The translations under genes and the position numbers were made by a program. Positions 4,958 to 60,042 of a DNA stretch of 64,000 nucleotides are shown piece by piece. The stretch is from Shigella phage Sf25, in the sequence record MF327009; one strand, written 5' to 3'. Positions within the stretch are counted from its first letter, which is position 1; each line of letters starts with the position of its first letter. Below the pieces are notes generated by a model. That model was not told where the DNA came from and ran no database searches. It saw nothing but the letters and a program-made list of their open reading frames with translations.

Positions 4958-5720
4958 TTAATAGCCTCGATCTTGACGAGCGAAGTTTTCAGCATTTTTC
5001 AGATAATAAAGTTTAAAGATTTCCTCAGCTGACATTCCAAGAGCAATGAATTTATTCATGAAAAAGTGAAATTGGTCAATCAGTTCAAATTTAATTTCAA
5101 GCTGATCTTCAGGAGATAAGTCTTGAATTTTCTTGGATTGCATTTCAGAATAACGTTTCTTCCAAGGTTTCCATACAGCAGAAGCTTCTTTTTCACCATT
5201 ACTCATACCACCAAGAGAAGTATATAGCTCGCGAGTTTCATCTGCGATATAATCGTCTTGGTTTCGCAACCAAGCAAGAACTTCTCCTGCAGTTTCAAGT
5301 GAATCAGGATGACGATTTGTTTCTGGTTTATCATTAGCCAAACGAATCTGTAAATGCCGCTGCATGTCAAATTTTCTTGGATTGCATTTCAGAATAACGT
5401 TTCTTCCAAGGTTTCCATACAGCAGAAGCTTCTTTTTCACCATTACTCATACCACCAAGAGAAGTATATAGCTCGCGAGTTTCATCTGCGATATAATCGT
5501 CTTGGTTTCGCAACCAAGCAAGAACTTCTCCTGCAGTTTCAAGTGAATCAGGATGACGATTTGTTTCTGGTTTATCATTAGCCAAACGAATCTGTAAATG
5601 CCGCTGCATGTCAAGCATAACCTGCAATGGGTCAATACTGTGCATAATATACTCAGCATATGCACGATTTGCTTTATCAACACCTTCGATCAAATGAGCA
5701 CATTCATTAAAGTGAGCCAT
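4958..5720 (-). pseudogene. 56: gene 56 dCTPase/dUTPase, frameshifted by an internal 244-bp tandem duplication
   Basis: Both ORF pieces (5367-5735 and 4958-5443) carry the same segment; N-terminus MAHFNECAHLIEGVDKANRAY and C-terminus ...KNAENFARQDRGY match T4 gp56; 244 is not a multiple of 3. Confidence 0.7.
5126..5613. repeat. perfect tandem duplication, 2 x 244 bp, inside gene 56
   Basis: 5126-5369 is identical to 5370-5613. Confidence 0.9.
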
Positions 5721-13963: not shown

Positions 13964-14808
13964 TCACCGTTATAATCTTTTTTCACAATATGAGTTTCGC
14001 CAGTATTCCACCAATGATCAACCAAGTAAAAATGACGAGAATATACATGAAGACTTCCAACATTCCATATAATAGAACCTGCTTTATACTGACGAGTTGA
14101 ATCGCCGGCATTCAAATCAGATACTAATTTATCTAATACGTATTTTTGCCATGCATAATCATTACGGAATCCGAAGACCACGTCATTTGAGCGCATGCTT
14201 ACTACTGCATTGACTTTCTTATCACGAATCAGGTACTGTACTGTATTAGTACACATGAAATCTGACATACCATCTTTATTGTAGTCAAATTGCATGGATG
14301 GACGAGTCATGCTTACTACTGCATTGACTTTCTTATCACGAATCAGGTACTGTACTGTATTAGTACACATGAAATCTGACATACCATCTTTATTGTAGTC
14401 AAATTGCATGGATGGACGAGTATAAATCATGATACCACGTCGAGAATCAGGATTTTGACCAAGTTCAGCTAAACACATATCATACTGGGCATAGTTATCT
14501 TCTGACCAAATAGCCCAACCATAATTCGAGTTAATTTCGCCTTTAGAAGATGCTACCTGCTGCCAAATCTTTGGTGTTTCGCCTGGAATATCTTTGACAA
14601 ACAGACTTTGAGACTTGTACCATTCAAGTTCACGCTGAATGTATTCATCATTAAGAGCGCCAAAAATAAAGGGTTCATCTGCTACAAATGATGCGCCAAT
14701 AATTTCAATAGTTTTAACACCGGTTTTATCAACTACGAAATCTTTTTCTTTTAATGCAAGCCCCAAATGAAGACGGATTTCTTCAACTGTCATAAAGTCA
14801 CTAATCAT
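13954..14808 (-). CDS. 42: dCMP hydroxymethylase gp42, with in-frame 38-aa internal duplication
   Basis: 284 aa, 38 more than T4 gp42 (246), exactly the duplicated block SMTRPSMQFDYNKDGMSDFMCTNTVQYLIRDKKVNAVV. Confidence 0.85.
   Translation of the reverse strand: MISDFMTVEEIRLHLGLALKEKDFVVDKTGVKTIEIIGASFVADEPFIFGALNDEYIQRELEWYKSQSLFVKDIPGETPKIWQQVASSKGEINSNYGWAIWSEDNYAQYDMCLAELGQNPDSRRGIMIYTRPSMQFDYNKDGMSDFMCTNTVQYLIRDKKVNAVVSMTRPSMQFDYNKDGMSDFMCTNTVQYLIRDKKVNAVVSMRSNDVVFGFRNDYAWQKYVLDKLVSDLNAGDSTRQYKAGSIIWNVGSLHVYSRHFYLVDHWWNTGETHIVKKDYNGEWK
14194..14421. repeat. perfect tandem duplication, 2 x 114 bp, inside gene 42
   Basis: 14194-14307 is identical to 14308-14421; in-frame. Confidence 0.9.
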
Positions 14809-16028: not shown

Positions 16029-18872
16029 TCAGCCAAACAGGAAGTCTAACGAAGCTTTTTCTTCATAGTCCATACCAGCCGATTCACACATGCCTGCAAG
16101 CGGTTTAACAAACGATTTTTGGAACAAAGTTGAGTAGTCAATCCAAGACAGTACGTCAGAACGAATTTCTTTTGGAAGTTCTGTACCCGACGGCCAAGCA
16201 ATGCATTTGTCACCAAATGGATTTCCTTCACGCAATGGAAGAACCATTACTTTATTTCCATCCAAAATTGGAGCTACACCTAAACCGCTAACAGCTCGAC
16301 GATAAGTTAGCACACCACGAATATGGAACGGACATTTAAATCCTGGCCAACCTTTATCATCATATTTCGCTATATCGTTCGCAGTTTTTACTTCAGCAAT
16401 AACTTTATAGTCAAGTTGACGATATTCTTTCTCGAAGTTCTTGTAATATTCTTGGACAGACTCTTCACCTTCCTGAAGAATACGACGAATACTTTCTTCG
16501 AGAGCTTCTTGGACCGCTTTAGGCGTTGAACTCTGCTGAGTTTCCATACCCATGATTTTTAGATGCGGTTCAGCAAATCGCTTATCTTCCATATCATATA
16601 CGTTCAGAGCATAACGCTTTTTCGCTTTCCAAAATCCGCCAACGCCCTTTGAACCAAGTGGAGGGCAAGAAATAGCTTCACGGTCCATATGCATCAGATG
16701 CTCGCGGTTATTCATATAATCACATAACTCACGATATGCAACATCAATCATAGGTTCCATCTTTTTCTTACCGAACTGATTCATGAATTCAACTAAATCG
16801 TTCTGCTCTTTGAATCGGTCAAGACCAACTTTTTCAATAACTTTATCTACACAAACATATACCGAATCAGTATCACCTGCTGCAATGAAATCTTCGCCAT
16901 TAGTTCCGCATACTTTATTCAGATATTCATTAATTTTACGAGCAATCCACTGAATACCAACTTGGCCGAAAATTGTGATAGCAGTAGCATTTCGCAAATC
17001 ATAGTAACGGAAATGAATATTACCAAGAGCACCATAAAGACTGTTAATAAGAATTTTACGGTTCAGCTGATTTGTGTTAGCAAGTGTAGCTGCTTTTTCA
17101 CACTCTTCGATCAAACTATTAAGAACAGATTCGGTGTAATTCGATAGTTCATTTAAGAAATCATCACTGAACTTAACATATCGTTCAACTTCTGGTTTAG
17201 TTGAGCAAGACCCTGCGCCTTTCATAATAATCTTTTTAATAGCTTCGGCATTCATTTCTTCAGCGAACATTTTCTTTTTCCAATCTTTACGCTGGAAAAA
17301 TACTTTAGCGATTTCCTTTGGAATGATACCTTCTTGATGCTTATCATACATCCATCCATTCGGAGAACAAGAATATTCATCACTCGGTTTAGGAGCTGTT
17401 CCTGCGATATATTCATGAATTGGATGAACTTTAAACTGACCACGAATAGTCTCAGGACTAATGTTAACCTGACGAATAATGCTCGGATACAGAGACGTCA
17501 AGTCAAAACTCATAATATATCGACGAGCAATTGGTTTAGGTTCAAACACAAATGCACCCGGAAAACTCTGTTTAACGTGCGAACCTTGTTGAGGAATAAC
17601 CTTATGTTCACCTTTCAATGAGTTAAAAATAATAGCATCCCAAGTTTTAATAGGACTCATTACACCGGAAAAAGGCATTTTAGCGTAATAAGACATACTT
17701 AAAACTAGATCGATAAACCCGCGAATTTTATCAATTGCTTGAACTGATTCTACGTCAATGATGTTATAACTAATGTATCGTTGATGATTAGTCTCACGAA
17801 GTTTATTAATAGGACCGTCGTATGGTAATTTACCTTTTTTGGTTTCATGTTGAGCAACTGATTCCAAAGAGAATGACGGCAAATTAGTAAAAGCGAATTT
17901 CTTGTACAAATCTAAATAATCAAGAATAGATACGCCATCAATAGAATAAATTTCTTTGCTGCCGTACATATTTTGAATTAGTTTGGATTTTACCCGACCG
18001 ATTGGAGAGAAACGTTTCATACTGCGTTCGCCTAGAATCATTTTAACACGATTCATGATATATGGAACGTCAAACCCCTCAATATTCCAACCGGTAAAAA
18101 TAGCAGGTCGTTTCTGTTCCCAGAGATTGATATATTCCATGAGCATATCACGCTCATTATCGAATGGCATATAAATTACTCGGTCAAGAATTTCTTGAGG
18201 AACTTCATCACCACCTTCACAGTCAAGCTTAGCAGCTAACTTTGCATCCCATTTTGATACTGAACCGTACATTGAATTCAAAAGGTCGAAAACATAAAAA
18301 CGATCGTCAATTGAATCGTAATGAGTGATAGCATCAATTTCATATTCAGCTTTCATTGGGTCAGGAAATTTATCACCAGTAACCTCAATGTCACAGTTAG
18401 CTACACGAACACCGTACATTGAATTCAAAAGGTCGAAAACATAAAAACGATCGTCAATTGAATCGTAATGAGTGATAGCATCAATTTCATATTCAGCTTT
18501 CATTGGGTCAGGAAATTTATCACCAGTAACCTCAATGTCACAGTTAGCTACACGAACAAATTTTCGGTCATAAACAATTTCTGAACCATATGTATCACTG
18601 ATATAAGCGAGTTTAAAATCGTTCATACCGAGAGCTTCGAGACCGATGTCTTCCATTCGCTTCATCCAATCTCGAGCATCTTTCATTGATGGAAATTTTT
18701 GAGGAGCGCAGTTTTTACCATAGATGTCTTTGTACTTTGACTCTTCCTTACAATGCCTAAACATAGTTGGAAGATATTCTACTTCACGAGTACGTTCCTT
18801 TCCATTTTCATCAATATAACGTTCAACAATATTATTTCCGACTGTTTCAATAGAGATATAAAATTCTTTCAT
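16029..18872 (-). CDS. 43: DNA polymerase gp43 (family B), with in-frame 49-aa internal duplication
   Basis: 947 aa, 49 more than T4 gp43 (898), exactly the duplicated block VRVANCDIEVTGDKFPDPMKAEYEIDAITHYDSIDDRFYVFDLLNSMYG; exonuclease and polymerase motifs present. Confidence 0.9.
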   Translation of the reverse strand: MKEFYISIETVGNNIVERYIDENGKERTREVEYLPTMFRHCKEESKYKDIYGKNCAPQKFPSMKDARDWMKRMEDIGLEALGMNDFKLAYISDTYGSEIVYDRKFVRVANCDIEVTGDKFPDPMKAEYEIDAITHYDSIDDRFYVFDLLNSMYGVRVANCDIEVTGDKFPDPMKAEYEIDAITHYDSIDDRFYVFDLLNSMYGSVSKWDAKLAAKLDCEGGDEVPQEILDRVIYMPFDNERDMLMEYINLWEQKRPAIFTGWNIEGFDVPYIMNRVKMILGERSMKRFSPIGRVKSKLIQNMYGSKEIYSIDGVSILDYLDLYKKFAFTNLPSFSLESVAQHETKKGKLPYDGPINKLRETNHQRYISYNIIDVESVQAIDKIRGFIDLVLSMSYYAKMPFSGVMSPIKTWDAIIFNSLKGEHKVIPQQGSHVKQSFPGAFVFEPKPIARRYIMSFDLTSLYPSIIRQVNISPETIRGQFKVHPIHEYIAGTAPKPSDEYSCSPNGWMYDKHQEGIIPKEIAKVFFQRKDWKKKMFAEEMNAEAIKKIIMKGAGSCSTKPEVERYVKFSDDFLNELSNYTESVLNSLIEECEKAATLANTNQLNRKILINSLYGALGNIHFRYYDLRNATAITIFGQVGIQWIARKINEYLNKVCGTNGEDFIAAGDTDSVYVCVDKVIEKVGLDRFKEQNDLVEFMNQFGKKKMEPMIDVAYRELCDYMNNREHLMHMDREAISCPPLGSKGVGGFWKAKKRYALNVYDMEDKRFAEPHLKIMGMETQQSSTPKAVQEALEESIRRILQEGEESVQEYYKNFEKEYRQLDYKVIAEVKTANDIAKYDDKGWPGFKCPFHIRGVLTYRRAVSGLGVAPILDGNKVMVLPLREGNPFGDKCIAWPSGTELPKEIRSDVLSWIDYSTLFQKSFVKPLAGMCESAGMDYEEKASLDFLFG
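18264..18557. repeat. perfect tandem duplication, 2 x 147 bp, inside gene 43
   Basis: 18264-18410 is identical to 18411-18557; in-frame. Confidence 0.9.
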
Positions 18873-18950: not shown

Positions 18951-19214
18951 TTAAATTAGTACTATTTGTCGGTGAAAAATTGTCATTCCATCTGCATTAA
19001 TTGACTTAACGACTGCAGTAAAGTGTTTTTGTTCTGGATGAATTAATTTTTGAAATTCTACCTGAAATTTTAGTTGAAGGTTTTCTGGTAAATCAAAAAG
19101 TGTTTCTGTTGCAGAAAGATTATATTTTTCTTTAAGAGACGTCATGTATTCTTGTGGAGTTATAGCAGTCATATTAATTACCAATCGTATATTTAGGAAC
19201 GAGTTTCCATTCAT
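18951..19214 (-). CDS. hypothetical protein (87 aa)
   Basis: ORF overlapping the regA 3' end. Confidence 0.3.
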   Translation of the reverse strand: MNGNSFLNIRLVINMTAITPQEYMTSLKEKYNLSATETLFDLPENLQLKFQVEFQKLIHPEQKHFTAVVKSINADGMTIFHRQIVLI

Positions 19215-19542
19215 GTTTTTGTTTAAAAGAAATAACTCGGAAGTTATTAGTTAAATCTTTCATAAAAGTTCTTTGACCAGGAACGATTTCAATCAATCCC
19301 CAATCTTCTAACAACCATGCAATCGAATCACGACGAACTTCATCTTCTTCTGCCATTTCAACTTGACGACCATCCATACGAAGCATTTCTTTAAAATGAA
19401 CGATATAGTATAGTCCTTTTTTCTGAAGAATATGACAGGACTGATACAGAACTTTATCTTTATTATTAGCAATTCCCATACGAGTCAAAGTTTCTTTTAC
19501 TTTCAGAAAATCTTCAGGTTTTTTAAGAGTAATTTCAATCAT
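19174..19542 (-). CDS. regA: translational repressor RegA
   Basis: 122 aa, equal to T4 RegA; position between 62 and 43. Confidence 0.8.
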   Translation of the reverse strand: MIEITLKKPEDFLKVKETLTRMGIANNKDKVLYQSCHILQKKGLYYIVHFKEMLRMDGRQVEMAEEDEVRRDSIAWLLEDWGLIEIVPGQRTFMKDLTNNFRVISFKQKHEWKLVPKYTIGN

Positions 19543-19605
19543 TTTACCATTCCAATGCTAGTTTTTTGAGTTGTTTCTGTTCTTTTACGTTCTTAGTCAC
19601 TTCTT

Positions 19606-19989
19606 TCAAAAAATCATATCTTCGACCAGTTTTGCCCATTTACCATATCTTTTACCACGAGGAACTGCAGCCATCAGATAATTAAAATGAGCTTCATCAC
19701 TTAAGCCTGATCCAATTAAATTCATAGCATATACAGCTGGCATGCACTCTGGAAATTGTGATAATGCATTTTCAACCATGAATTTTGAATAATCTTTTTG
19801 AGCAATAGAGCATTTAGTTTTATTATTAATAGCTCCAATTATTTCAAAAAATTCATTTTCAGCTTTTTCTTTAAAAGAATCAGCAGCAGATTGGACAGCT
19901 GTCCAATCTTTTGAATACCAAGCAACTTGATGCTCGTTTAATTGAATATCATCTTCAAATAAGCTCATATCACTTCCACTGCATTTCAC
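19606..19989 (-). pseudogene. 62: clamp-loader subunit gp62, truncated (apparent internal out-of-frame deletion)
   Basis: 127 aa versus 187 in T4; ends ...[11 protein letters not shown]; the short stretch before regA encodes, out of frame, KEVTKNVKEQKQLKKLALEW* which resembles the T4 gp62 C-terminus as recalled. Confidence 0.55.
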
Positions 19990-20929
19990 ATGCTAATTGA
20001 ATGAAAAGATAAGCTAAATGTAATTCAGTGTTAGCTGCAATACCATGATACTGATTATTTTCACCAACAATTTCGTACATACGAATAATACTTTGCGGAG
20101 TTACACGTGAATAGATTTCTTCGGCAAGTTTACCCACGAACCACGAATAATCAGCTGCATATTTTGGTGCTAAAGCTCTGAGTTGTTTAACATCTTTATT
20201 TTTGAGAGACTCAAGAACATCATCAATAGCACCACGATCGTTAGTAACCAGTGATAAAATACCAGCATCCAAAACACCTTTAGATGAATAACTATCGAGC
20301 TCACCAATAGTTTTACGAAAATCAGGAAAATTCTTTTTAACCAAAGCTGCTACAACTTTCATATCAGCTATAGCAATTCCTTCATGCTTGCAGATTTCAG
20401 TCAATCGACGAATCATCTGCTTCATCATTTCAATTTTATCTTCATCGGTCGGTTGACCGAATGTAATAACTCGGCAGCGTGACTGGAGAGGTTTAATAAT
20501 ACCATCAATATTGTTAGCAGTAATAATAATACTACAGTTTGAACTATAAGCTTCCATAAAGGAACGAAGATGTCGCTGAGACTCTGCTAACCCTGAGCGG
20601 TCAAATTCATCAATAACGATTACTTTTTGACGACCATCAAATGAAGCGGCGCTGGCAAAATTAGTCAAAGGACCACGAACGAAATCAATTTTACAATCTG
20701 ACCCATTCACAAACATCATATCAGCATTTACATCATGACACAATGCTTTCGCTACAGTTGTTTTACCTGTTCCTGGAGAAGGAGAATGAAGAATAATATG
20801 TGGAATTTTACCTTTACTTGTAATAGATTTAAAGGTTTCTTTATCAAAGGCGGGAAGAATACATTCATCGATAGTAGATGGACGATATTTCTGTTCAAGA
20901 ATGTGTTCTTTTTCATTTACGGTAATCAT
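19970..20929 (-). CDS. 44: clamp-loader ATPase gp44
   Basis: Walker A GTGKTT, SRC motif; start taken at MITVNEKEH (319 aa as in T4). Confidence 0.9.
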
Positions 20930-20963
20930 AATTTCCTCATACAAGTTTTAGTGTAAATTATAA

Positions 20964-20977
20964 AGGGCCGAAGCCCT
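20964..20977 (-). other. intercistronic RNA stem-loop (UUCG tetraloop) between 45 and 44
   Basis: agggc-cgaa-gccct on plus strand. Confidence 0.4.
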
Positions 20978-20980
20978 CTA

Positions 20981-21667
20981 TTAAAAATCGTGGGTAGAAT
21001 CAGCTTCAAGAGCTACTACATAATTCGCATGTTCACCTTCAAATTTAGCAGCGCCTTGTTTACCTTTTGCCCAAAGCAGAAGTTTATAATTTCCTGGTTG
21101 CATTTTCATATTTGCCATATTGATAATGAAATTAAATGTATTTTCACCATCATAATCACCAAGAGTCAAAGAATATTTAACACGGGTAAGAGCAGAATCT
21201 TCTACTTTATTAAAACCGTTAATTACGATTTTACCTTCTTTTACCGTGATAGCAATTGTATCAATTTGCAGACCACGAGATACACGCAACAGCTGTTGAA
21301 GGTCTTCAGCTTTAATTTCAGTAACAACAGATGCTACCGGGAATGGAATTGGTTTATTAGGAGCAACTACTGTACTCGGATCGGCTGCTGGCCAAAAAAT
21401 TGTTGAACGAGCATCAGCAATTTTAATATTTCCATCTTCTGACTGGGAAATTTCTGCATCATCATTAACTAGAGACAGAATACCGAGAAAACCGTTCAAA
21501 TCGTAAATTGCTACATCAAAATCAATAACGTCAGAAATATTTGCTTCCGCATAAGTTGTACCATTAACTGCGCGAGTCATAATAAATTGACCGGATTTAA
21601 GCATAATACCGGAGTTAATAGTAGCGAAATTTTTAAGCAGAGCAGTAGTATCTTTAGACAGTTTCAT
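20981..21667 (-). CDS. 45: sliding clamp gp45
   Basis: 228 aa, same length as T4 gp45; position. Confidence 0.9.
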   Translation of the reverse strand: MKLSKDTTALLKNFATINSGIMLKSGQFIMTRAVNGTTYAEANISDVIDFDVAIYDLNGFLGILSLVNDDAEISQSEDGNIKIADARSTIFWPAADPSTVVAPNKPIPFPVASVVTEIKAEDLQQLLRVSRGLQIDTIAITVKEGKIVINGFNKVEDSALTRVKYSLTLGDYDGENTFNFIINMANMKMQPGNYKLLLWAKGKQGAAKFEGEHANYVVALEADSTHDF

Positions 21668-21722
21668 GTAATTTCCTTCAATTCAAATGAGATTTAATTT
21701 TATAACTAATTTAATAAAGCAA

Positions 21723-22112
21723 TTAACGATTAAAATCAGCCGCAATTGTTTCAGCAACAATTTGAGCAGCAACAATTAGGCGTTCATCTGCATTACCGCA
21801 ATATTCATCTTCTAAACGTTCACCGCATGAAGTCATAATAAATTTAGCACCGGCGTTTAGGGATTCTGCAGTATGTTTGCGCATTAGTTCAATCCATTTA
21901 TTACTTACTTCACGATCGATAGCTTCATAATACGCATGACGAGCAGGTGCAGATTTAATTTTGTTCTGAATAACTTCCATTGCGTTATCAGAAAGAGACA
22001 AAACCCATGCGCGACGAATTTTATTTTGGTTTTGCGGATTTGAGTCAGAACGCACGTGTTTTGGCTGAATATCTTTTACATCAACAGTATAATTCACAGT
22101 AATTTTAGTCAT
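21723..22112 (-). CDS. rpbA: RNA-polymerase-binding protein RpbA
   Basis: 129 aa, same length as T4 RpbA, between 46 and 45. Confidence 0.6.
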
Positions 22113-22121
22113 AATACACCT

Positions 22122-22310
22122 TTAGTCATAATAATCAGTAACAGTCCAAGCTTCATTTCTATTGGACATTATTTTTGTATATTCTGCTTTAAATGCATTC
22201 CTAAGCATAGATTCAGTAACTATATGCTCTTCATTAGAAAAATTATTTCTCAGAATATATCGTTTTATTTCAGGAAAAGTTAATAGATGCTGTCCAGTTG
22301 AATATTCCAT
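22122..22310 (-). CDS. hypothetical protein (62 aa)
   Basis: Minus-strand ORF; a 10-bp inverted repeat lies upstream at 22321-22365. Confidence 0.4.
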   Translation of the reverse strand: MEYSTGQHLLTFPEIKRYILRNNFSNEEHIVTESMLRNAFKAEYTKIMSNRNEAWTVTDYYD

Positions 22311-22365
22311 GTTTTTCCTCCATAGAGATTATACTCTAATAAATTAAAGCATAATCTCTTATAAA

Positions 22366-24048
22366 TTAAACCATTACAGTAAATCGACCAACTTTCTTCA
22401 TTTGAAGATGCTGACCATATTCTTGCGGGTCATGGTCTTTATGCGAAATTATAAAAACATTAGTGTTTTTCATTGAATTTATAATATTAGCTACACCTTT
22501 AATACCTTCGGCATCAAATGACCCATCAAACACTTCATCGAGTATTAACGTACTAATACTAACACCAGATACAATAGAAGCAATATCACGCCAAGTAAAT
22601 AAAAGAGCAATATCAATTCGTGCTTTTTCACCTTCACTAAATGAAGCATAACTAAAATCTTCACGACCACGGGATTTAATTGTCTCATTAAATTCTTCAT
22701 CTAATGTAAACACATAATCCGCTTCCATTATTTTAAGATAATGGTTAATCTGCTTATTAAATAATGGAACGTACTTTTTAATAATAGCACCTTTAATACC
22801 AGAATCTTTGAGCATATCAGTCAAAATTCCTCGGTGGTATTTTTCCATTACTAAATTAGTTTTTGTCTTAACAATTTTATCAAGTTCTTCTTGAAGCAGT
22901 GCTATTTCATCAGCATGGTCAATAAACTCAGAAGATGCTTTTTCTATAGCTGCTTTAACTTTTTTAGCTTTATCTACCGTCGTGATTAGAGATTGCTTTT
23001 TATTGCGAATATCATTTGCCAACGACTGCTGAGTTTTAATATTATCTCGGTATTCATCAACAAGAACTTTTAAATTATCACGGTGTGTTGAAAGCTGTTC
23101 AAACGAATGCGTACATTCAGAAACTTTATCTTTAATTTTAGAAACAACTTTATCACCGGAACTTAATTGTGACAAACAGGTTGGACATAATCCACCTTCG
23201 TGATACATATTAATGACTTTATTATACGAGTCAATTTTTGATTTAATTAAAACTGCTTCTTGACCGATTTTATTAAATGCATCAGTCGGGTCTTCATCCA
23301 AAACAATATTAACTAATCTTTCGTTAGCTTCTTCTATTTCCGATTTTAGCGTTCTAGCTTCTTTTGCCAAATCATCATACATATTTTGTAGACGTGTAAG
23401 GTTGTCACCCGTTAATTTTTTCTGGCGTTCAACGTTATCATTATATATTTTAATTTGTTGGATAATACTATCTTTTTTAACATCAAGCACTTGGTTCTGC
23501 GAATTTAATTCACGTATTAGTGCTTTATTAAGCTTATCCATTTCAGCTAATGTTCCTACCTCAAGCAGGTCTTCCACAAGCTTTCTTCGCGCAGGGGTCG
23601 ACAAACCCATGAAAGGGGTATACCCTGCTGTACCAAGGACAACAATCTGCTTGAAACTGGCATATGACATTCCGATAAGCTGTTCAAATTCTGCTTGGAA
23701 ATCTTTACTGCTGGCAGATTCATTAAGACGTGTACCGTTAACGGTGATTTCGAAAACGTTTGGTTTTTGTCCTCTTTTGATATAGTACTTTTTCTCATCA
23801 TATTCCATCCACAGTTCAACTAAAAGTTCTTTCTTATTTGTGCTGTTTATTAATTGACCTTTCTTTACATCACGAAATGGCTTGCCAAAAAGCCCAAATG
23901 TGATGGCTTCTAACATAGTAGACTTACCACCGCCATTTCGGCCAGTAATAAGAGTTTTTTGAACCTTATCTAATTGAATGTCAATAGGATTTCCACCTAC
24001 TGACATTATATTTTGATACCTAACTCGGTTTAGTTTAAAATTCTTCAC
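22366..24048 (-). CDS. 46: recombination nuclease subunit gp46 (Rad50/SbcC-like ATPase)
   Basis: 560 aa; Walker A GRNGGGKST, central coiled coil with CPTC hook, signature and Walker B LILDEVFDG. Confidence 0.9.
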   Translation of the reverse strand: MKNFKLNRVRYQNIMSVGGNPIDIQLDKVQKTLITGRNGGGKSTMLEAITFGLFGKPFRDVKKGQLINSTNKKELLVELWMEYDEKKYYIKRGQKPNVFEITVNGTRLNESASSKDFQAEFEQLIGMSYASFKQIVVLGTAGYTPFMGLSTPARRKLVEDLLEVGTLAEMDKLNKALIRELNSQNQVLDVKKDSIIQQIKIYNDNVERQKKLTGDNLTRLQNMYDDLAKEARTLKSEIEEANERLVNIVLDEDPTDAFNKIGQEAVLIKSKIDSYNKVINMYHEGGLCPTCLSQLSSGDKVVSKIKDKVSECTHSFEQLSTHRDNLKVLVDEYRDNIKTQQSLANDIRNKKQSLITTVDKAKKVKAAIEKASSEFIDHADEIALLQEELDKIVKTKTNLVMEKYHRGILTDMLKDSGIKGAIIKKYVPLFNKQINHYLKIMEADYVFTLDEEFNETIKSRGREDFSYASFSEGEKARIDIALLFTWRDIASIVSGVSISTLILDEVFDGSFDAEGIKGVANIINSMKNTNVFIISHKDHDPQEYGQHLQMKKVGRFTVMV

Positions 24049-24308
24049 AAAAGATTCCTTTTAATGTATCTTTTAGACCATTCTATCATATCATCATAAT
24101 CTAAAAAGTATTCATCAAATTCAGCCATGCAAACAACACCTTGTACTGTTTTTGATGTAATATAAATTATTCCAACATATCTGGAATCTTCTTCGGTGTA
24201 ATCAATATTTGCTACGAATTCATCGTTAATGTCAAATGTCGAAAACTTCACAGTATGCATCCTTAATACAAGATACAGCCATATCTCGTAATGATTTAGG
24301 TGTGTCAT
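24045..24308 (-). CDS. hypothetical protein (87 aa)
   Basis: Minus-strand ORF between 47 and 46. Confidence 0.4.
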   Translation of the reverse strand: MTHLNHYEIWLYLVLRMHTVKFSTFDINDEFVANIDYTEEDSRYVGIIYITSKTVQGVVCMAEFDEYFLDYDDMIEWSKRYIKRNLL

Positions 24309-24495
24309 TATCTAAAATGTTGAAGTTAAAAGATACAGCCCAGTCAGTGCAGACCGTAACCTTTTTAATACAATCATCTTCAACCTCTAGCGGTTCAAAC
24401 CAATATTCAATAATTTCTTTATTCCCAATATCATCTTTTACTTCGCATTCAAAATGCTGACTCATCATAACATTTTTAAATTCATCAAAAGTCAT
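24232..24495 (-). CDS. hypothetical protein (87 aa)
   Basis: Minus-strand ORF between 47 and 46. Confidence 0.4.
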   Translation of the reverse strand: MTFDEFKNVMMSQHFECEVKDDIGNKEIIEYWFEPLEVEDDCIKKVTVCTDWAVSFNFNILDNDTPKSLRDMAVSCIKDAYCEVFDI

Positions 24496-25511
24496 TGTGT
24501 TGCCTCTACATATAACTGATTTGCATATTGAATAAGTGCTTCGCGATCAGAATCAGTGATGTCTGGAATTGCATTAATGTATTCTTCCATCAACGTCTGA
24601 AGAGATTGAACTTCCACTTCTTCGCTATCATCTGACTCAACAGAGTTATCAATCTTTGACACAACTCGTAATGAATGCACAACTTTTTCTAGTTCAGATT
24701 CGAACTTCGTTAAATTTTTGTCTACTTCAGTTACTATAACACGCACTGATAGATTTGTAAAATCTTTATAGTCAATTTTTCCCTTAAATGGATATTGAAT
24801 TCGACGATGCCAGGTAGTGTTGTTTGGAATAAATTCCATTCGTTCTGTTTCTGTATCAAACATCCAGAACCCGCGAGGGTCATTCTCGTCACCTGCAGTT
24901 AGTGTCCATGGTGTCCCAATATATCTGACGTTAGCAGCCTCAGAGATAGTATGGAAGTGACCAGACCACACTTCTTTATAAGTCTTAAGGAAATCAGGTT
25001 CAAGACCATGAGATTTCATTCCTTTATAAAAATAAAATCCGTTCAGTTCCCAGTGACCAACGCAAAAAGAAGCAAATGAAGTTTTGATGTGTTCAAGAAT
25101 TTCACCAGTATTTTCTTCGCACATCCAAGGAATTAAATCAATCAAACATCCGTCAAAATCTACTGTAGTAGGCTTATCATATACTTTAACATTAGAATAT
25201 TTAGCCAAAAGCTCAGTAGAAGCATTTGGAGTTAAAGTATTTTTAAAGTGCATATCATGGTTTCCTACAACAGTATGTAGGGTAATACCAGCATCATCAA
25301 GCATTTGAACTATTTCACGGGCGAACTCCATAGTTTTATGTGTGATTGCTTTTCGCACATCAAAAATATCGCCGTATTGAATCCATGTAGTAATTCCATT
25401 TTTCTTAGAATATTCTATTGCTTGTTTAATTCCATCCAACTGAATGGATTGAACCCACTCATCATCGGCTTTAACACCTAAATGCCAATCACCTAAATTT
25501 AAAATTTTCAT
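24492..25511 (-). CDS. 47: recombination nuclease subunit gp47 (Mre11/SbcD-like)
   Basis: 339 aa; phosphoesterase motifs GDWHLG, GDIFD, GNHD. Confidence 0.9.
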   Translation of the reverse strand: MKILNLGDWHLGVKADDEWVQSIQLDGIKQAIEYSKKNGITTWIQYGDIFDVRKAITHKTMEFAREIVQMLDDAGITLHTVVGNHDMHFKNTLTPNASTELLAKYSNVKVYDKPTTVDFDGCLIDLIPWMCEENTGEILEHIKTSFASFCVGHWELNGFYFYKGMKSHGLEPDFLKTYKEVWSGHFHTISEAANVRYIGTPWTLTAGDENDPRGFWMFDTETERMEFIPNNTTWHRRIQYPFKGKIDYKDFTNLSVRVIVTEVDKNLTKFESELEKVVHSLRVVSKIDNSVESDDSEEVEVQSLQTLMEEYINAIPDITDSDREALIQYANQLYVEATQ

Positions 25512-30929: not shown

Positions 30930-31400
30930 TTAATCATGTTTCCACACCCCATCGGTATTTGACCAAAGTCGCTGATTATCTGATCCTCGCCACAGCTTTT
31001 TGGTCGGAAGATTTTTCTCATACTTCCCATCAATAATAACATCAACATATTTAAGCATTTCTAGTTGTTTAATATCTTCAAATTTATATCCTGTCCACAA
31101 CCAAATGCTTTTATTGGGATAAAGATTTTTTACTGTTTGAACAATGCAATGAACAACATCTCGGTTATCAGGATAGAGAGGGTCTCCTCCAGTTATAGTT
31201 AATCCTTCTATATAATCATTATTCAAACATTCAATTAATTGTTCTAGTGTTTCACCAGTGAATGGAACACCGTTTCTAGCGTTCCATGTTGATTTATTAT
31301 AACACCCTTCGCATTTATGCAAACAACCTGTAACGAAAAGAACGACCCTGCAACCAGGGCCATTCACAAAATCACAAGGATAAAATCTATCATAATTCAT
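30930..31400 (-). CDS. nrdG: anaerobic ribonucleotide reductase activase NrdG (radical SAM)
   Basis: 156 aa; cysteine cluster CLHKCEGC. Confidence 0.85.
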   Translation of the reverse strand: MNYDRFYPCDFVNGPGCRVVLFVTGCLHKCEGCYNKSTWNARNGVPFTGETLEQLIECLNNDYIEGLTITGGDPLYPDNRDVVHCIVQTVKNLYPNKSIWLWTGYKFEDIKQLEMLKYVDVIIDGKYEKNLPTKKLWRGSDNQRLWSNTDGVWKHD

Positions 31401-31654
31401 TGATGCTTAACCCTATGCATGATTTCTTTATTTTTACCGAGATTAAATCCGCGCTCGTTAGGATTTCCCAAATAACCAACACCCTTCGCATTTATGCAAA
31501 CAACCTGTAACGAAAAGAACGACCCTGCAACCAGGGCCATTCACAAAATCACAAGGATAAAATCTATCATAATTCATTGATGCTTAACCCTATGCATGAT
31601 TTCTTTATTTTTACCGAGATTAAATCCGCGCTCGTTAGGATTTCCCAAATAACC
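31301..31654. repeat. perfect tandem duplication, 2 x 177 bp, spanning the nrdD 3' end, intergenic region and nrdG 5' end
   Basis: 31301-31477 is identical to 31478-31654; leaves a nrdG 5' fragment (ATG at 31577) between intact nrdD and intact nrdG. Confidence 0.9.
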
Positions 31655-37059: not shown

Positions 37060-38361
37060 TTACTTAATTAACTGTAAAGCTTGTTCAAGACGATCAAGAC
37101 GATTAACGGATTCTTCCCAAATCTTTTTAGCACTTTCATATTCTTTTTCTGCTTTATTTTTAATTTCTAAAGCTTCTTTATAAGCTTTTTCTAGTGCAAT
37201 AACTTCTGGACGAATTTCTATTGGCTCAGGAGAATCATCGAGCCAATCCATCAATTCTTCAAGTGTGGTTTCTTCTTTAGGAGCATTCACAATTTCTTCA
37301 CATTTCTTCTGATGAATTTCTTTATCTGTTAGTGAATAAGCACATTTCACTTCACGAAGACTAATTACAATTTTATATCCTTCCCATCCGCATATATTCT
37401 TAAAAGGATATGTATGAATATTTTCTACTGTTTCCATACAAAGTAATGCAGTCTCTAACTGACGAGTTATAGTGCTAGCAATTGAGAAAAATTTATTAAT
37501 ATTCTTTTGGTTAGCGTTTGGTGTAAAAAATCCATAATTCACAAAAATAGCTACTTTATTTTCATCAAGCTCATATTCTAGTGAATAAGCACATTTCACT
37601 TCACGAAGACTAATTACAATTTTATATCCTTCCCATCCGCATATATTCTTAAAAGGATATGTATGAATATTTTCTACTGTTTCCATACAAAGTAATGCAG
37701 TCTCTAACTGACGAGTTATAGTGCTAGCAATTGAGAAAAATTTATTAATATTCTTTTGGTTAGCGTTTGGTGTAAAAAATCCATAATTCACAAAAATAGC
37801 TACTTTATTTTCATCAAGCTCATATTCTTTTACGATAATCATATCAGAAGCCAAAGGATGAATTTGACGATAATCGCCATAACATAATTTAGAAGCTGAT
37901 TTTAGAATTTGTCCTTTGAAAAGTCTGAAATTACTAATCCAACGACGAGTAAAAATATTCTCAGGGTCTTCTTTATTATTAAGATGATAAGAATTAACAT
38001 CACCGAACCAATTATATCCTACTACATCTTTGGTTCGTTTAATTTCTTTCCCAAAATTACCAAGAATATCCCGATTAACCAAATATGAAAGAAGACGAGA
38101 CTCTTTAAAGGTTTTCTTGATATTATCTTTATCTACACGGCTAGAAATTTTACGAATTTCATGAATAAATTTAGTAGAAGAAACAATACTTGCATCAACA
38201 CTATTGAGCCATTGATTGATAATGGAAAGAACGATATTTTGACCAAACATCGGTATAGCTTTATCATCAATAACGCTATTGAATGATTTGATATATTCGT
38301 TACGAGTCATATTAATCTCCTCAGTAGAAAGTAAGAACATTATACCACATCCTTGTGGCAA
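37060..38361 (-). CDS. hypothetical protein with C-terminal coiled coil and in-frame 83-aa internal duplication
   Basis: 433 aa as given; block YELDENKVAIFVNYGFF...REVKCAYSL occurs twice; likely real start MTRNEYIKSF. Confidence 0.45.
   Translation of the reverse strand: MPQGCGIMFLLSTEEINMTRNEYIKSFNSVIDDKAIPMFGQNIVLSIINQWLNSVDASIVSSTKFIHEIRKISSRVDKDNIKKTFKESRLLSYLVNRDILGNFGKEIKRTKDVVGYNWFGDVNSYHLNNKEDPENIFTRRWISNFRLFKGQILKSASKLCYGDYRQIHPLASDMIIVKEYELDENKVAIFVNYGFFTPNANQKNINKFFSIASTITRQLETALLCMETVENIHTYPFKNICGWEGYKIVISLREVKCAYSLEYELDENKVAIFVNYGFFTPNANQKNINKFFSIASTITRQLETALLCMETVENIHTYPFKNICGWEGYKIVISLREVKCAYSLTDKEIHQKKCEEIVNAPKEETTLEELMDWLDDSPEPIEIRPEVIALEKAYKEALEIKNKAEKEYESAKKIWEESVNRLDRLEQALQLIK
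37331..37828. repeat. perfect tandem duplication, 2 x 249 bp
   Basis: 37331-37579 is identical to 37580-37828; in-frame. Confidence 0.9.
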
Positions 38362-38367
38362 AGTAAA

Positions 38368-39642
38368 CTAGTTCAGTGCATTTAGTGCATTGTTCAGTTT
38401 AGAACGTTGCTTCGTGAGATTTTTGACTTTTTCTTGTGCTTTTTCTAGCATCTTTTCAGCTTCTAACACTTCATTGGTCGCTTTAACGAGTTCATCATCT
38501 ACTGCCTTAAGGGACTTCTCAATCGCATCCGCGTGCCATTTTTCAACAGGTTTAAGACTCGGATTTTCAATAGGAAGAAAATTCACTTTATTGAATTTCC
38601 ATGCATCTTTATTACCTGAACTATACATCCAAAATTTAGGATCGTTTGATGAGTAATTGGATAAATTTAAATTTAAGTTATCTTGCACTTCTTGCTTTTT
38701 CTCTTGCGTGACTTCGTCCTTTCTCAAAAAATCGTATTTAAATGAAACGATCATATCAAGTTCATATGTTGTTGTGTCTAATTTAAATCGTTCGAAATGC
38801 TGTGAAATCTTAGACTGAATAGGAAGAAAATTCACTTTATTGAATTTCCATGCATCTTTATTACCTGAACTATACATCCAAAATTTAGGATCGTTTGATG
38901 AGTAATTGGATAAATTTAAATTTAAGTTATCTTGCACTTCTTGCTTTTTCTCTTGCGTGACTTCGTCCTTTCTCAAAAAATCGTATTTAAATGAAACGAT
39001 CATATCAAGTTCATATGTTGTTGTGTCTAATTTAAATCGTTCGAAATGCTGTGAAATCTTAGACTGAACAGCAGCAACAACATCCATATACTTAAATGCT
39101 TCTGTCAACTGTGATTTAAGACATTCGCAAATTGAAAGAGAATTTTTTGTATTAGGTTTAAAGCTAATTCGTGCAGTTCTATTATTTTCTTTTAATGGTC
39201 TTACTTCCATCTGAAGAGTATAACCATCAAATTTCAGGTTCTTTAAGTTAATATCAGAACCTTTTAATCGACTCGCAGTTGATAAAATTTGCTTTAATTG
39301 TCTACGGAATAGAGCAATAAATCTCCATTCAATACGATAATGATTTGGATTGAAAAATCCAGATGATAAATCGACCTTACTTTGACCAACGCCTTGAACA
39401 AATAGAGGATTTTTATAATCAATAGTTTTACAGAAATCGGTTAGCTGCTCACGAGCAGTCATTTGTGTAATATACCCCGCTTTACTAAAATGACGTAACC
39501 ATTCACTGCTATTCATATATTTAAAGTGAATATCACGATTAACTTTATCAGGGTCTAAATTATTTTGGCACAAAAATGTCATAACATCACGAGTATAGCT
39601 GGCATTACGAATCATATCTTCAATTTGAGAACGAGTTTTCAT
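38368..39642 (-). CDS. hypothetical protein with C-terminal coiled coil and in-frame 83-aa internal duplication
   Basis: 424 aa as given; block ...SKISQHFERFKLDTTTYELDMIVSFKYDF...KVNFLP occurs twice. Confidence 0.45.
   Translation of the reverse strand: MKTRSQIEDMIRNASYTRDVMTFLCQNNLDPDKVNRDIHFKYMNSSEWLRHFSKAGYITQMTAREQLTDFCKTIDYKNPLFVQGVGQSKVDLSSGFFNPNHYRIEWRFIALFRRQLKQILSTASRLKGSDINLKNLKFDGYTLQMEVRPLKENNRTARISFKPNTKNSLSICECLKSQLTEAFKYMDVVAAVQSKISQHFERFKLDTTTYELDMIVSFKYDFLRKDEVTQEKKQEVQDNLNLNLSNYSSNDPKFWMYSSGNKDAWKFNKVNFLPIQSKISQHFERFKLDTTTYELDMIVSFKYDFLRKDEVTQEKKQEVQDNLNLNLSNYSSNDPKFWMYSSGNKDAWKFNKVNFLPIENPSLKPVEKWHADAIEKSLKAVDDELVKATNEVLEAEKMLEKAQEKVKNLTKQRSKLNNALNALN
38569..39066. repeat. 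perfect tandem duplication, 2 x 249 bp
   Basis: 38569-38817 is identical to 38818-39066; in-frame. Confidence 0.9.
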
Positions 39643-39650
39643 GGTGTTCC

Positions 39651-40808
39651 TTAAGATTTAAGTAAATCAACAATTTTAATTAACTTTTCACGCTCGGATT
39701 TAGCTTTACTACTCAGTCCAGATAGTCTGAAAATTTCATCATCATATTGTTGAATAGAAATATTCAGCTCTTCAATCTGTTTATTAAAATAATCAATTTG
39801 TTCAGAATGTTTTTCGTTACTACGAACTGGTACAGGTTTTGTAGGCAATTTAGTTGAACTGGATTCATCCGGGCGATAAATTAAAATACAACTTGAACCA
39901 ATAGGGCATTTTGCACCAGATGAATATTCTAATGTTCCAGCTTCTTTTAAAACTTCAAAAGCTAAACAGAGATGATGCCCCATATTAACATAATCTGTAG
40001 AGTGAGCTCTGATCAGCTCTTCAATCTGTTTATTAAAATAATCAATTTGTTCAGAATGTTTTTCGTTACTACGAACTGGTACAGGTTTTGTAGGCAATTT
40101 AGTTGAACTGGATTCATCCGGGCGATAAATTAAAATACAACTTGAACCAATAGGGCATTTTGCACCAGATGAATATTCTAATGTTCCAGCTTCTTTTAAA
40201 ACTTCAAAAGCTAAACAGAGATGATGCCCCATATTAACATAATCTGTAGAGTGAGCTCTGATGTAATAATCATCTCCACGAATACTAAATTTAAAGCATT
40301 TAAGGTCTTCTGTATTATTGGTCTTAAAAATCATTTGTTTATCTAGACCTTTAGCTAATCGAGCGCCTAATGCTAATAATCGTCGTTGATTTTCCCACAA
40401 ATCCGCAATCATTTGATCGAATGATAATTTCGGCATTAGTCGACCATAAAGGTCATATCCTTTATTATAATTGCGAAGGATTTCACTCGCATTAATACGA
40501 GACAACGCTCCAATTTTATTAAGGGCTTTCATGATGCGATTAGATAAACCCATTCCAGACCCGTTTGTTCGTTGTAAATGTTTATCTAATCCAAACCCAA
40601 TATCAACTTTAAATTTATCTAAAATTTCAGCATGAACATCTCTGTCAATAACATTCAAATCCAAAGTTTGGTTAAATCTATGAAAAAATTTATCTGGCTC
40701 TCCACGACGAAGTACAGTCCATTCATTCAATTTTTTATTAACTAAAGATTTAATTACTGCATTGACATTATTAATTACTACTGACATATTTTCCTCACTC
40801 AATTTCAA
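39651..40808 (-). CDS. hypothetical protein with C-terminal coiled coil and in-frame 83-aa internal duplication
   Basis: 385 aa as given; block RAHSTDYVNMGHHLCLAFEVLKEAGT...NKQIEEL occurs twice. Confidence 0.45.
   Translation of the reverse strand: MKLSEENMSVVINNVNAVIKSLVNKKLNEWTVLRRGEPDKFFHRFNQTLDLNVIDRDVHAEILDKFKVDIGFGLDKHLQRTNGSGMGLSNRIMKALNKIGALSRINASEILRNYNKGYDLYGRLMPKLSFDQMIADLWENQRRLLALGARLAKGLDKQMIFKTNNTEDLKCFKFSIRGDDYYIRAHSTDYVNMGHHLCLAFEVLKEAGTLEYSSGAKCPIGSSCILIYRPDESSSTKLPTKPVPVRSNEKHSEQIDYFNKQIEELIRAHSTDYVNMGHHLCLAFEVLKEAGTLEYSSGAKCPIGSSCILIYRPDESSSTKLPTKPVPVRSNEKHSEQIDYFNKQIEELNISIQQYDDEIFRLSGLSSKAKSEREKLIKIVDLLKS
39765..40262. repeat. perfect tandem duplication, 2 x 249 bp
   Basis: 39765-40013 is identical to 40014-40262; in-frame. 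Confidence 0.9.
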
Positions 40809-59956: not shown

Positions 59957-60042
59957 TGGTGCGAGAAGTGGGACTCGAACCCACAAGGAAATCATTCCGC
60001 AGCATTTTAAGTGCTGTGCCAACTTGGCTAATTCCCAATTAT
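59957..60042 (-). pseudogene. chimeric tRNA remnant: 3' two-thirds of tRNA-Leu(UAA) fused to a 5' segment that looks like the start of tRNA-Gln
   Basis: Intact Leu anticodon arm (CUUAAAA), long variable arm, T-arm and acceptor 3' strand TTCTCGC-A-CCA, but the 5' side reads TTGGGAATTAGCCAAGTTGGCA, which cannot pair with the acceptor 3' strand and resembles a tRNA-Gln 5' end. Confidence 0.5.

Follow-up and report, generated by a model that had tools for sequence, protein, structure and literature searches.

Does the shortened gene 62 of Shigella phage Sf25 reflect a clamp-loader subunit that has really lost part of its sequence, or a fault in the deposited record? In T4, gp62 associates with gp44 in a 4:1 complex that loads gp45. 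The protein is the "clasp" subunit at position A of the clamp-loader pentamer (PMC8121543), its A' domain follows the collar on the C-terminal side and forms a bridge to the E subunit (PMC3331839, PMC8121543), and one preprint describes the T4 clamp-loader complex as essential for DNA replication (bioRxiv 10.1101/2023.10.18.562948). The stretch of DNA analyzed here (64,000 nt, hereafter the window) comes from MF327009, the accession of Sf25 (PMC6563131). Its initial annotation proposed an out-of-frame internal deletion in the essential gene 62, with the C-terminus of the protein left behind in another frame, a description that is borne out below by alignment to a close relative and by tblastn. 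Its reading as a notable biological truncation finds no support: the evidence points to a sequence artefact, one that belongs to the level of the record and is partly known already.

The window is a Tequatrovirus segment whose minus strand carries genes 45, 44, 62, regA, a 43.1-type ORF and 43, in the order known from T4. Among 50,697 phage records searched, the best match for its first 25 kb is Shigella phage Sf24 (98.6% identity overall, and 99.9% over window positions 19618-25194), while the gene 62 region is matched by about 500 Tequatrovirus records. Both neighbors of gene 62 are intact. Gene 44, coding for the clamp-loader ATPase subunit (19973..20929, minus strand), specifies 319 aa with 100% identity to Sf24 and T4; regA (19174..19542, minus strand) specifies a 122-aa protein exactly matching the Sf25 protein AUV63459.1, and its ATG comes after the original gene 62 stop, a T4-like arrangement. 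Gene 62 of Sf25 thus occupies the place between gene 44 and regA that is expected for a T4 gp62.

Pairwise alignment of window positions 19500-20010 to Sf24 revealed one mismatch and one gap over 511 bases. The gap comprises exactly 139 bp, absent relative to both Sf24 (its positions 20286-20424) and T4, and the comparison with T4 gene 62 breaks at the same point as that with Sf24. The junction lies between 19618 and 19617 and reads, on the minus strand, ...GTC GAA GAT, then ATG ATT TTT TGA, where Sf24 has GTC GAA GAT TCC ACC ... GTC ACG GAT GAT TTT TTG; not a single base is common to both sides, so that microhomology is absent. What is missing runs from codon S118 through codon T163 and also takes the first base of D164, a G, i.e., 46 codons and one nucleotide, which makes the initial estimate of about 45 codons close, if not exact. 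Because the deletion shifts the frame, the 5' part of the gene (19606..19968, minus strand) retains codons 1-117, identical to those of Sf24 gp62, continues with Met-Ile-Phe and ends at a premature TGA (19608-19606). The remainder (19544..19615, minus strand) preserves out of frame the last 23 codons (165-187) together with the original TAA stop (19546-19544), and is 100% identical to Sf24. A tblastn search with Sf24 gp62 as the query accordingly returned two segments at 100% identity: residues 1-117 in frame -2 (19968-19618) and residues 165-187 in frame -1 (19615-19547). The T4 length of 187 aa and the T4 C-terminal peptide, both cited in the initial annotation, were correct, and the corresponding codons indeed lie in another frame just before regA. 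Its ORF of 127 aa exists as a mechanical reading frame whose first codon is a GTG within gene 44. Translation truly starts from the ATG at 19968 (MSLFEDD...), and the real product has 120 aa and matches the Sf25 protein AUV63460.1 exactly.

Relocation of the 139-bp segment within the window was considered as well and rejected, since a search of the window for it returned chance 11-14-mer matches alone. A search for a second copy of gene 62 in the window found none.

At the protein level, the 120-aa product still matches PF16790 (Phage_clamp_A) with 148.1 bits against a gathering cutoff of 27, and it keeps Trp17 and Trp111, the gp62 residues found to be most sensitive to mutation (PMC8121543). 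Of the 144 profile positions it matches 1-88 only, whereas the 187-aa Sf24 protein covers 1-144; with its C-terminal 70 residues missing, it attains neither the full length of about 187 aa nor a complete domain. Apart from ORF length, nothing suggests that this lineage naturally has a short gp62, the circumstance that would have turned the apparent truncation into a normal form, and the comparison with relatives refutes it, leaving it practically no likelihood. Sf24, 99.9% identical over 19618-25194, has a gp62 of 187 aa, and so do all 14 other members listed for the 235-member cluster at 90% identity; moreover, the C-terminal codons persist undecayed in another frame, and the window holds neither the missing 139 bp nor another gene 62.

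The two-frame layout brings to mind recoding, i.e., a -1 ribosomal slip on AUU UUU UGA, immediately ahead of the new stop, that would carry translation into the native frame of the C-terminus and yield a 141-aa gp62 without residues 118-164. The site itself is permissive: shifted back by one base, the tRNA-Phe paired with UUU meets UUU again, and the codons that follow read LKEVTKNV...LALEW. Programmed -1 shifting is known from the clamp-loader gene dnaX of E. coli. The T-run, however, is simply the GAT TTT TTG that all relatives have natively and translate in frame, and the two-frame layout occurs in no other record among the 50,697 phage records. A programmed frameshift would combine a slippery site with a conserved two-frame layout, whereas the relatives have one continuous ORF. 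Even the slipped product would be short of 46 residues (about 39% of the Pfam domain), and recoding leaves the other 12 events described below unexplained. We therefore regard it as extremely improbable. It is likewise very unlikely, if marginally less so, that the deletion is real and that Sf25 replicates with a gp62 lacking the C-terminal A' region, be it as the 120-aa product or as the 141-aa product of a -1 slip.

The break is confined to the Sf25 record. A 40-nt probe centered on the gene 62 junction, which seeds megablast only where the junction itself is present, had no match in the 50,697 phage records (a set that does not contain MF327009), while a positive control, a 40-mer placed about 20 bases off the junction, matched 320 of them. 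Probes of 25-30 nt and 40 nt likewise failed to find the junction in IMG/VR, in GTDB (one genome per species) and in JGI metagenomes, and a 43-mer from the 43.1 region, used to look for an intact twin in IMG/VR, had no match there. In NCBI, both the 120-aa gp62 and a 947-aa DNA polymerase encoded in the window (see below) occur as exact proteins solely under Sf25, each on one contig of 168,573 bp; the anomalies therefore belong to the deposited record MF327009, as evidenced by the exact matches to AUV63460.1 and AUV63457.1. These matches also dispose of the idea, prompted by the uniformity of the events described below, that the changes had been planted in the sequence in silico.

Nor is the gene 62 deletion a single notable event, as it had first appeared. 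Whole-window BLAST comparisons with Sf24 and T4, supplemented by a self-comparison of the window, uncovered a total of 13 such events, all confined to the Sf25 record: eight tandem duplications (114-249 bp) and five clean deletions (80-156 bp), at each of which the window runs on where the Sf24 or T4 coordinates jump forwards or backwards. Neither Sf24 nor T4 has any of the 13, and none exceeds 251 bp. Besides the gene 62 break at 19617, the junctions lie at 1417, 2445, 5370, 14307, 18411, 31477, 37579, 38819, 40013, 46830, 58903 and about 60018. Concatenated 40-nt probes for twelve junctions had zero matches in the same 50,697 phage records without MF327009.

Several of the duplications affect genes required by T4. 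A perfect 244-bp duplication inside gene 56 (dCTPase; 5126..5614, minus strand) causes a frameshift, because 244 bp is not a multiple of three, and leaves gp56 in two pieces, residues 1-117 and residues 36-172, encoded in different frames. A perfect 147-bp duplication inside gene 43 (18264..18558, minus strand) adds 49 aa, giving a DNA polymerase of 947 aa instead of 898 (exactly the Sf25 protein AUV63457.1), in which VRVANCDIEVTGDKF...LLNSMYG occurs twice in the N-terminal exonuclease region. Gene 42 (dCMP hydroxymethylase) gains 38 aa in frame from a perfect 114-bp duplication (14194-14421, minus strand). Elsewhere, perfect duplications of 208 bp (2238-2653) and 177 bp (31301-31654) affect, respectively, the modA.2 region, where most of modA.2 is covered, and the end of nrdD with the start of nrdG, both of which read through intact. 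The neighboring genes of the nrdC.4/nrdC.5/nrdC.6 group carry one duplication of 249-bp period each (37330-37828, 38569-39068 and 39764-40262), every one adding 83 aa in frame; this length, common to three of the eight duplications, hints at a technical origin, with read length as one candidate. The two copies are 100% identical in seven of the eight cases, the eighth (38569) showing no more than a single mismatch, located at the margin of its blastn alignment, and microhomology at the duplication junctions amounts to 0-2 bp only.

The remaining deletions remove 156 bp from modA (between 1417 and 1418; in frame, -52 aa), 145 bp that take in the final 29 codons of rI.-1 along with the spacer ahead of mobD.5 (between 46830 and 46831), 84 bp of non-coding sequence corresponding to the T4 rnaC/rnaD region (between 58903 and 58904), and 80 bp at about 60018 (within 59957-60038), where tRNA-Leu is fused with tRNA-Gln. 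Nine tRNAs are consequently counted in the window vs. 10 in Sf24, and the Leu gene is abnormal.

Taken together, these features argue very strongly for an error in the deposited Sf25 sequence MF327009 as the source of the 139-bp gap in gene 62, and the actual phage most likely carries a normal 187-aa gp62. At gene 62 itself, the deletion is exact and blunt, its flanks are essentially those of Sf24, and the C-terminal remnant has not decayed. Across the window, the identical copies, the undecayed remnant, the blunt junctions, the upper size of about 250 bp and the repeated period favor an assembly artefact over 13 independent biological rearrangements. Such an error could have arisen during sequence assembly or finishing: pieces joined on a reference with their overlaps left untrimmed would produce tandem duplications, and pieces joined with the gaps between them left unfilled would produce deletions. 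Reads of 250 nt may have been involved, and would account for the three 249-bp periods as well as for the upper limit of about 251 bp on event size. The deletion, its effect on the frame, its restriction to this record, the twelve further events and the identity of the record are shown directly, whereas both the in silico origin of the events and this particular mechanism are what we infer; the error at gene 62 is deduced from the sequence record rather than seen.

Viability provides a further argument. Genes 56, 43 and 42 are essential in T4, and the isolation of Sf25 in its source study was reportedly by plaque formation. It is not plausible for a plaque-forming isolate to combine a gp62 defect, a frameshift in gene 56 and inserted sequence in both gene 43 and gene 42. 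The anomalies thus present themselves as many like events with blunt ends, incompatible with viability and found in one record only, with the relatives intact. One observation runs against the artefact: six of the eight duplication periods are divisible by three, slightly above chance, and selection acting on real events would yield such a pattern. This excess is weakened by the fact that three of the periods share one 249-bp length, and hence are not independent.

As a rival explanation, the deletion would be real in the sequenced DNA itself, the lysate having contained defective genomes or a mixture of T4-like phages in which genomes without gp62 were complemented by a co-infecting intact phage. 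T4-type phages recombine and complement readily, and the window is indeed a mosaic with respect to Sf24, in which nearly identical stretches alternate with stretches diverged by about 3%; some of the identity switches lie near the junctions at 5370, 38819 and 40013, which would fit a mixed template. Nevertheless, this explanation needs 13 independent rearrangements, each of at most 251 bp, blunt and with identical copies, all of them fixed in one consensus. The gene 62 junction, in particular, displays no sharp switch in divergence: towards regA the first 115 bp or so are free of mismatches, and on the gene 62 side there is only one, about 40 bp off. A mixed sample is, moreover, itself a possible route to misassembly. 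On balance, a real deletion in a mixed lysate is unlikely, while being the least improbable of the alternatives to an error in the record.

Divergence from Sf24 is as low as 0-2 differences per kb over 5.4-13 kb, 19.6-29 kb and 58.6-64 kb, and elsewhere in the window there are stretches with 20-80 differences per kb. Either a mixed template or natural recombination between phages isolated together may lie behind this pattern. When the density of single-nucleotide differences from Sf24 was used to ask whether the junctions are the ends of contigs from different strains, those at 5370, 38819 and 40013 coincided with switches and that of gene 62 did not do so sharply, which amounts to a hint.

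The main value of attributing the gap to the record lies in a quality flag on the public Sf25 entry and on the proteins derived from it. Two of these, AUV63460.1 (120 aa, "clamp loader, small subunit") and AUV63457.1 (947 aa, "DNA polymerase"), carry errors, and a UniRef grouping of 18 sequences has the entry of the latter, A0A2K9VME2, as its named representative. Errors of this kind in the Sf25 record can mislead core-genome, domain-architecture and pseudogene analyses. Were the deletion true, it would bear on the dispensability of the clasp A' domain, implying that a T4-type clamp loader can do without the domain by which the clasp is closed onto subunit E, a possibility against which the evidence speaks strongly.

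A side-by-side comparison with known systems places these observations in context. The closest one is T4 gp62 (the clamp-loader A "clasp" subunit; PF16790; PDB 3U5Z/3U60/8UH7), from which Sf25 residues 1-117 differ only at position 5 (E5/K5) and whose 45-44-62-regA-43 neighborhood is also present in Sf25; the difference is that T4 gp62 has 187 aa, whereas the product encoded in Sf25 stops at 120 aa. E. coli dnaX (tau/gamma) offers a looser parallel, being likewise a clamp-loader gene where a homopolymer tract beside a stop could give two products, as in Sf25, but in Sf25 gene 62 the two-frame layout is not conserved and no known stimulatory element accompanies it, so that the likeness is one of resemblance only. 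A third comparison is with the frame-shifted genome records (Sf25, SHFML-26, phiAS5, nt-1 and VH7D) set aside in a study of the Tevenvirinae core genome, which excluded Sf25 on the grounds that core components had been lost through shifted reading frames in a number of genes (PMC8056088). The record and the core-gene symptom are the same as here; that study names neither the genes nor the cause, whereas the present analysis maps eight duplications and five deletions with exact coordinates.
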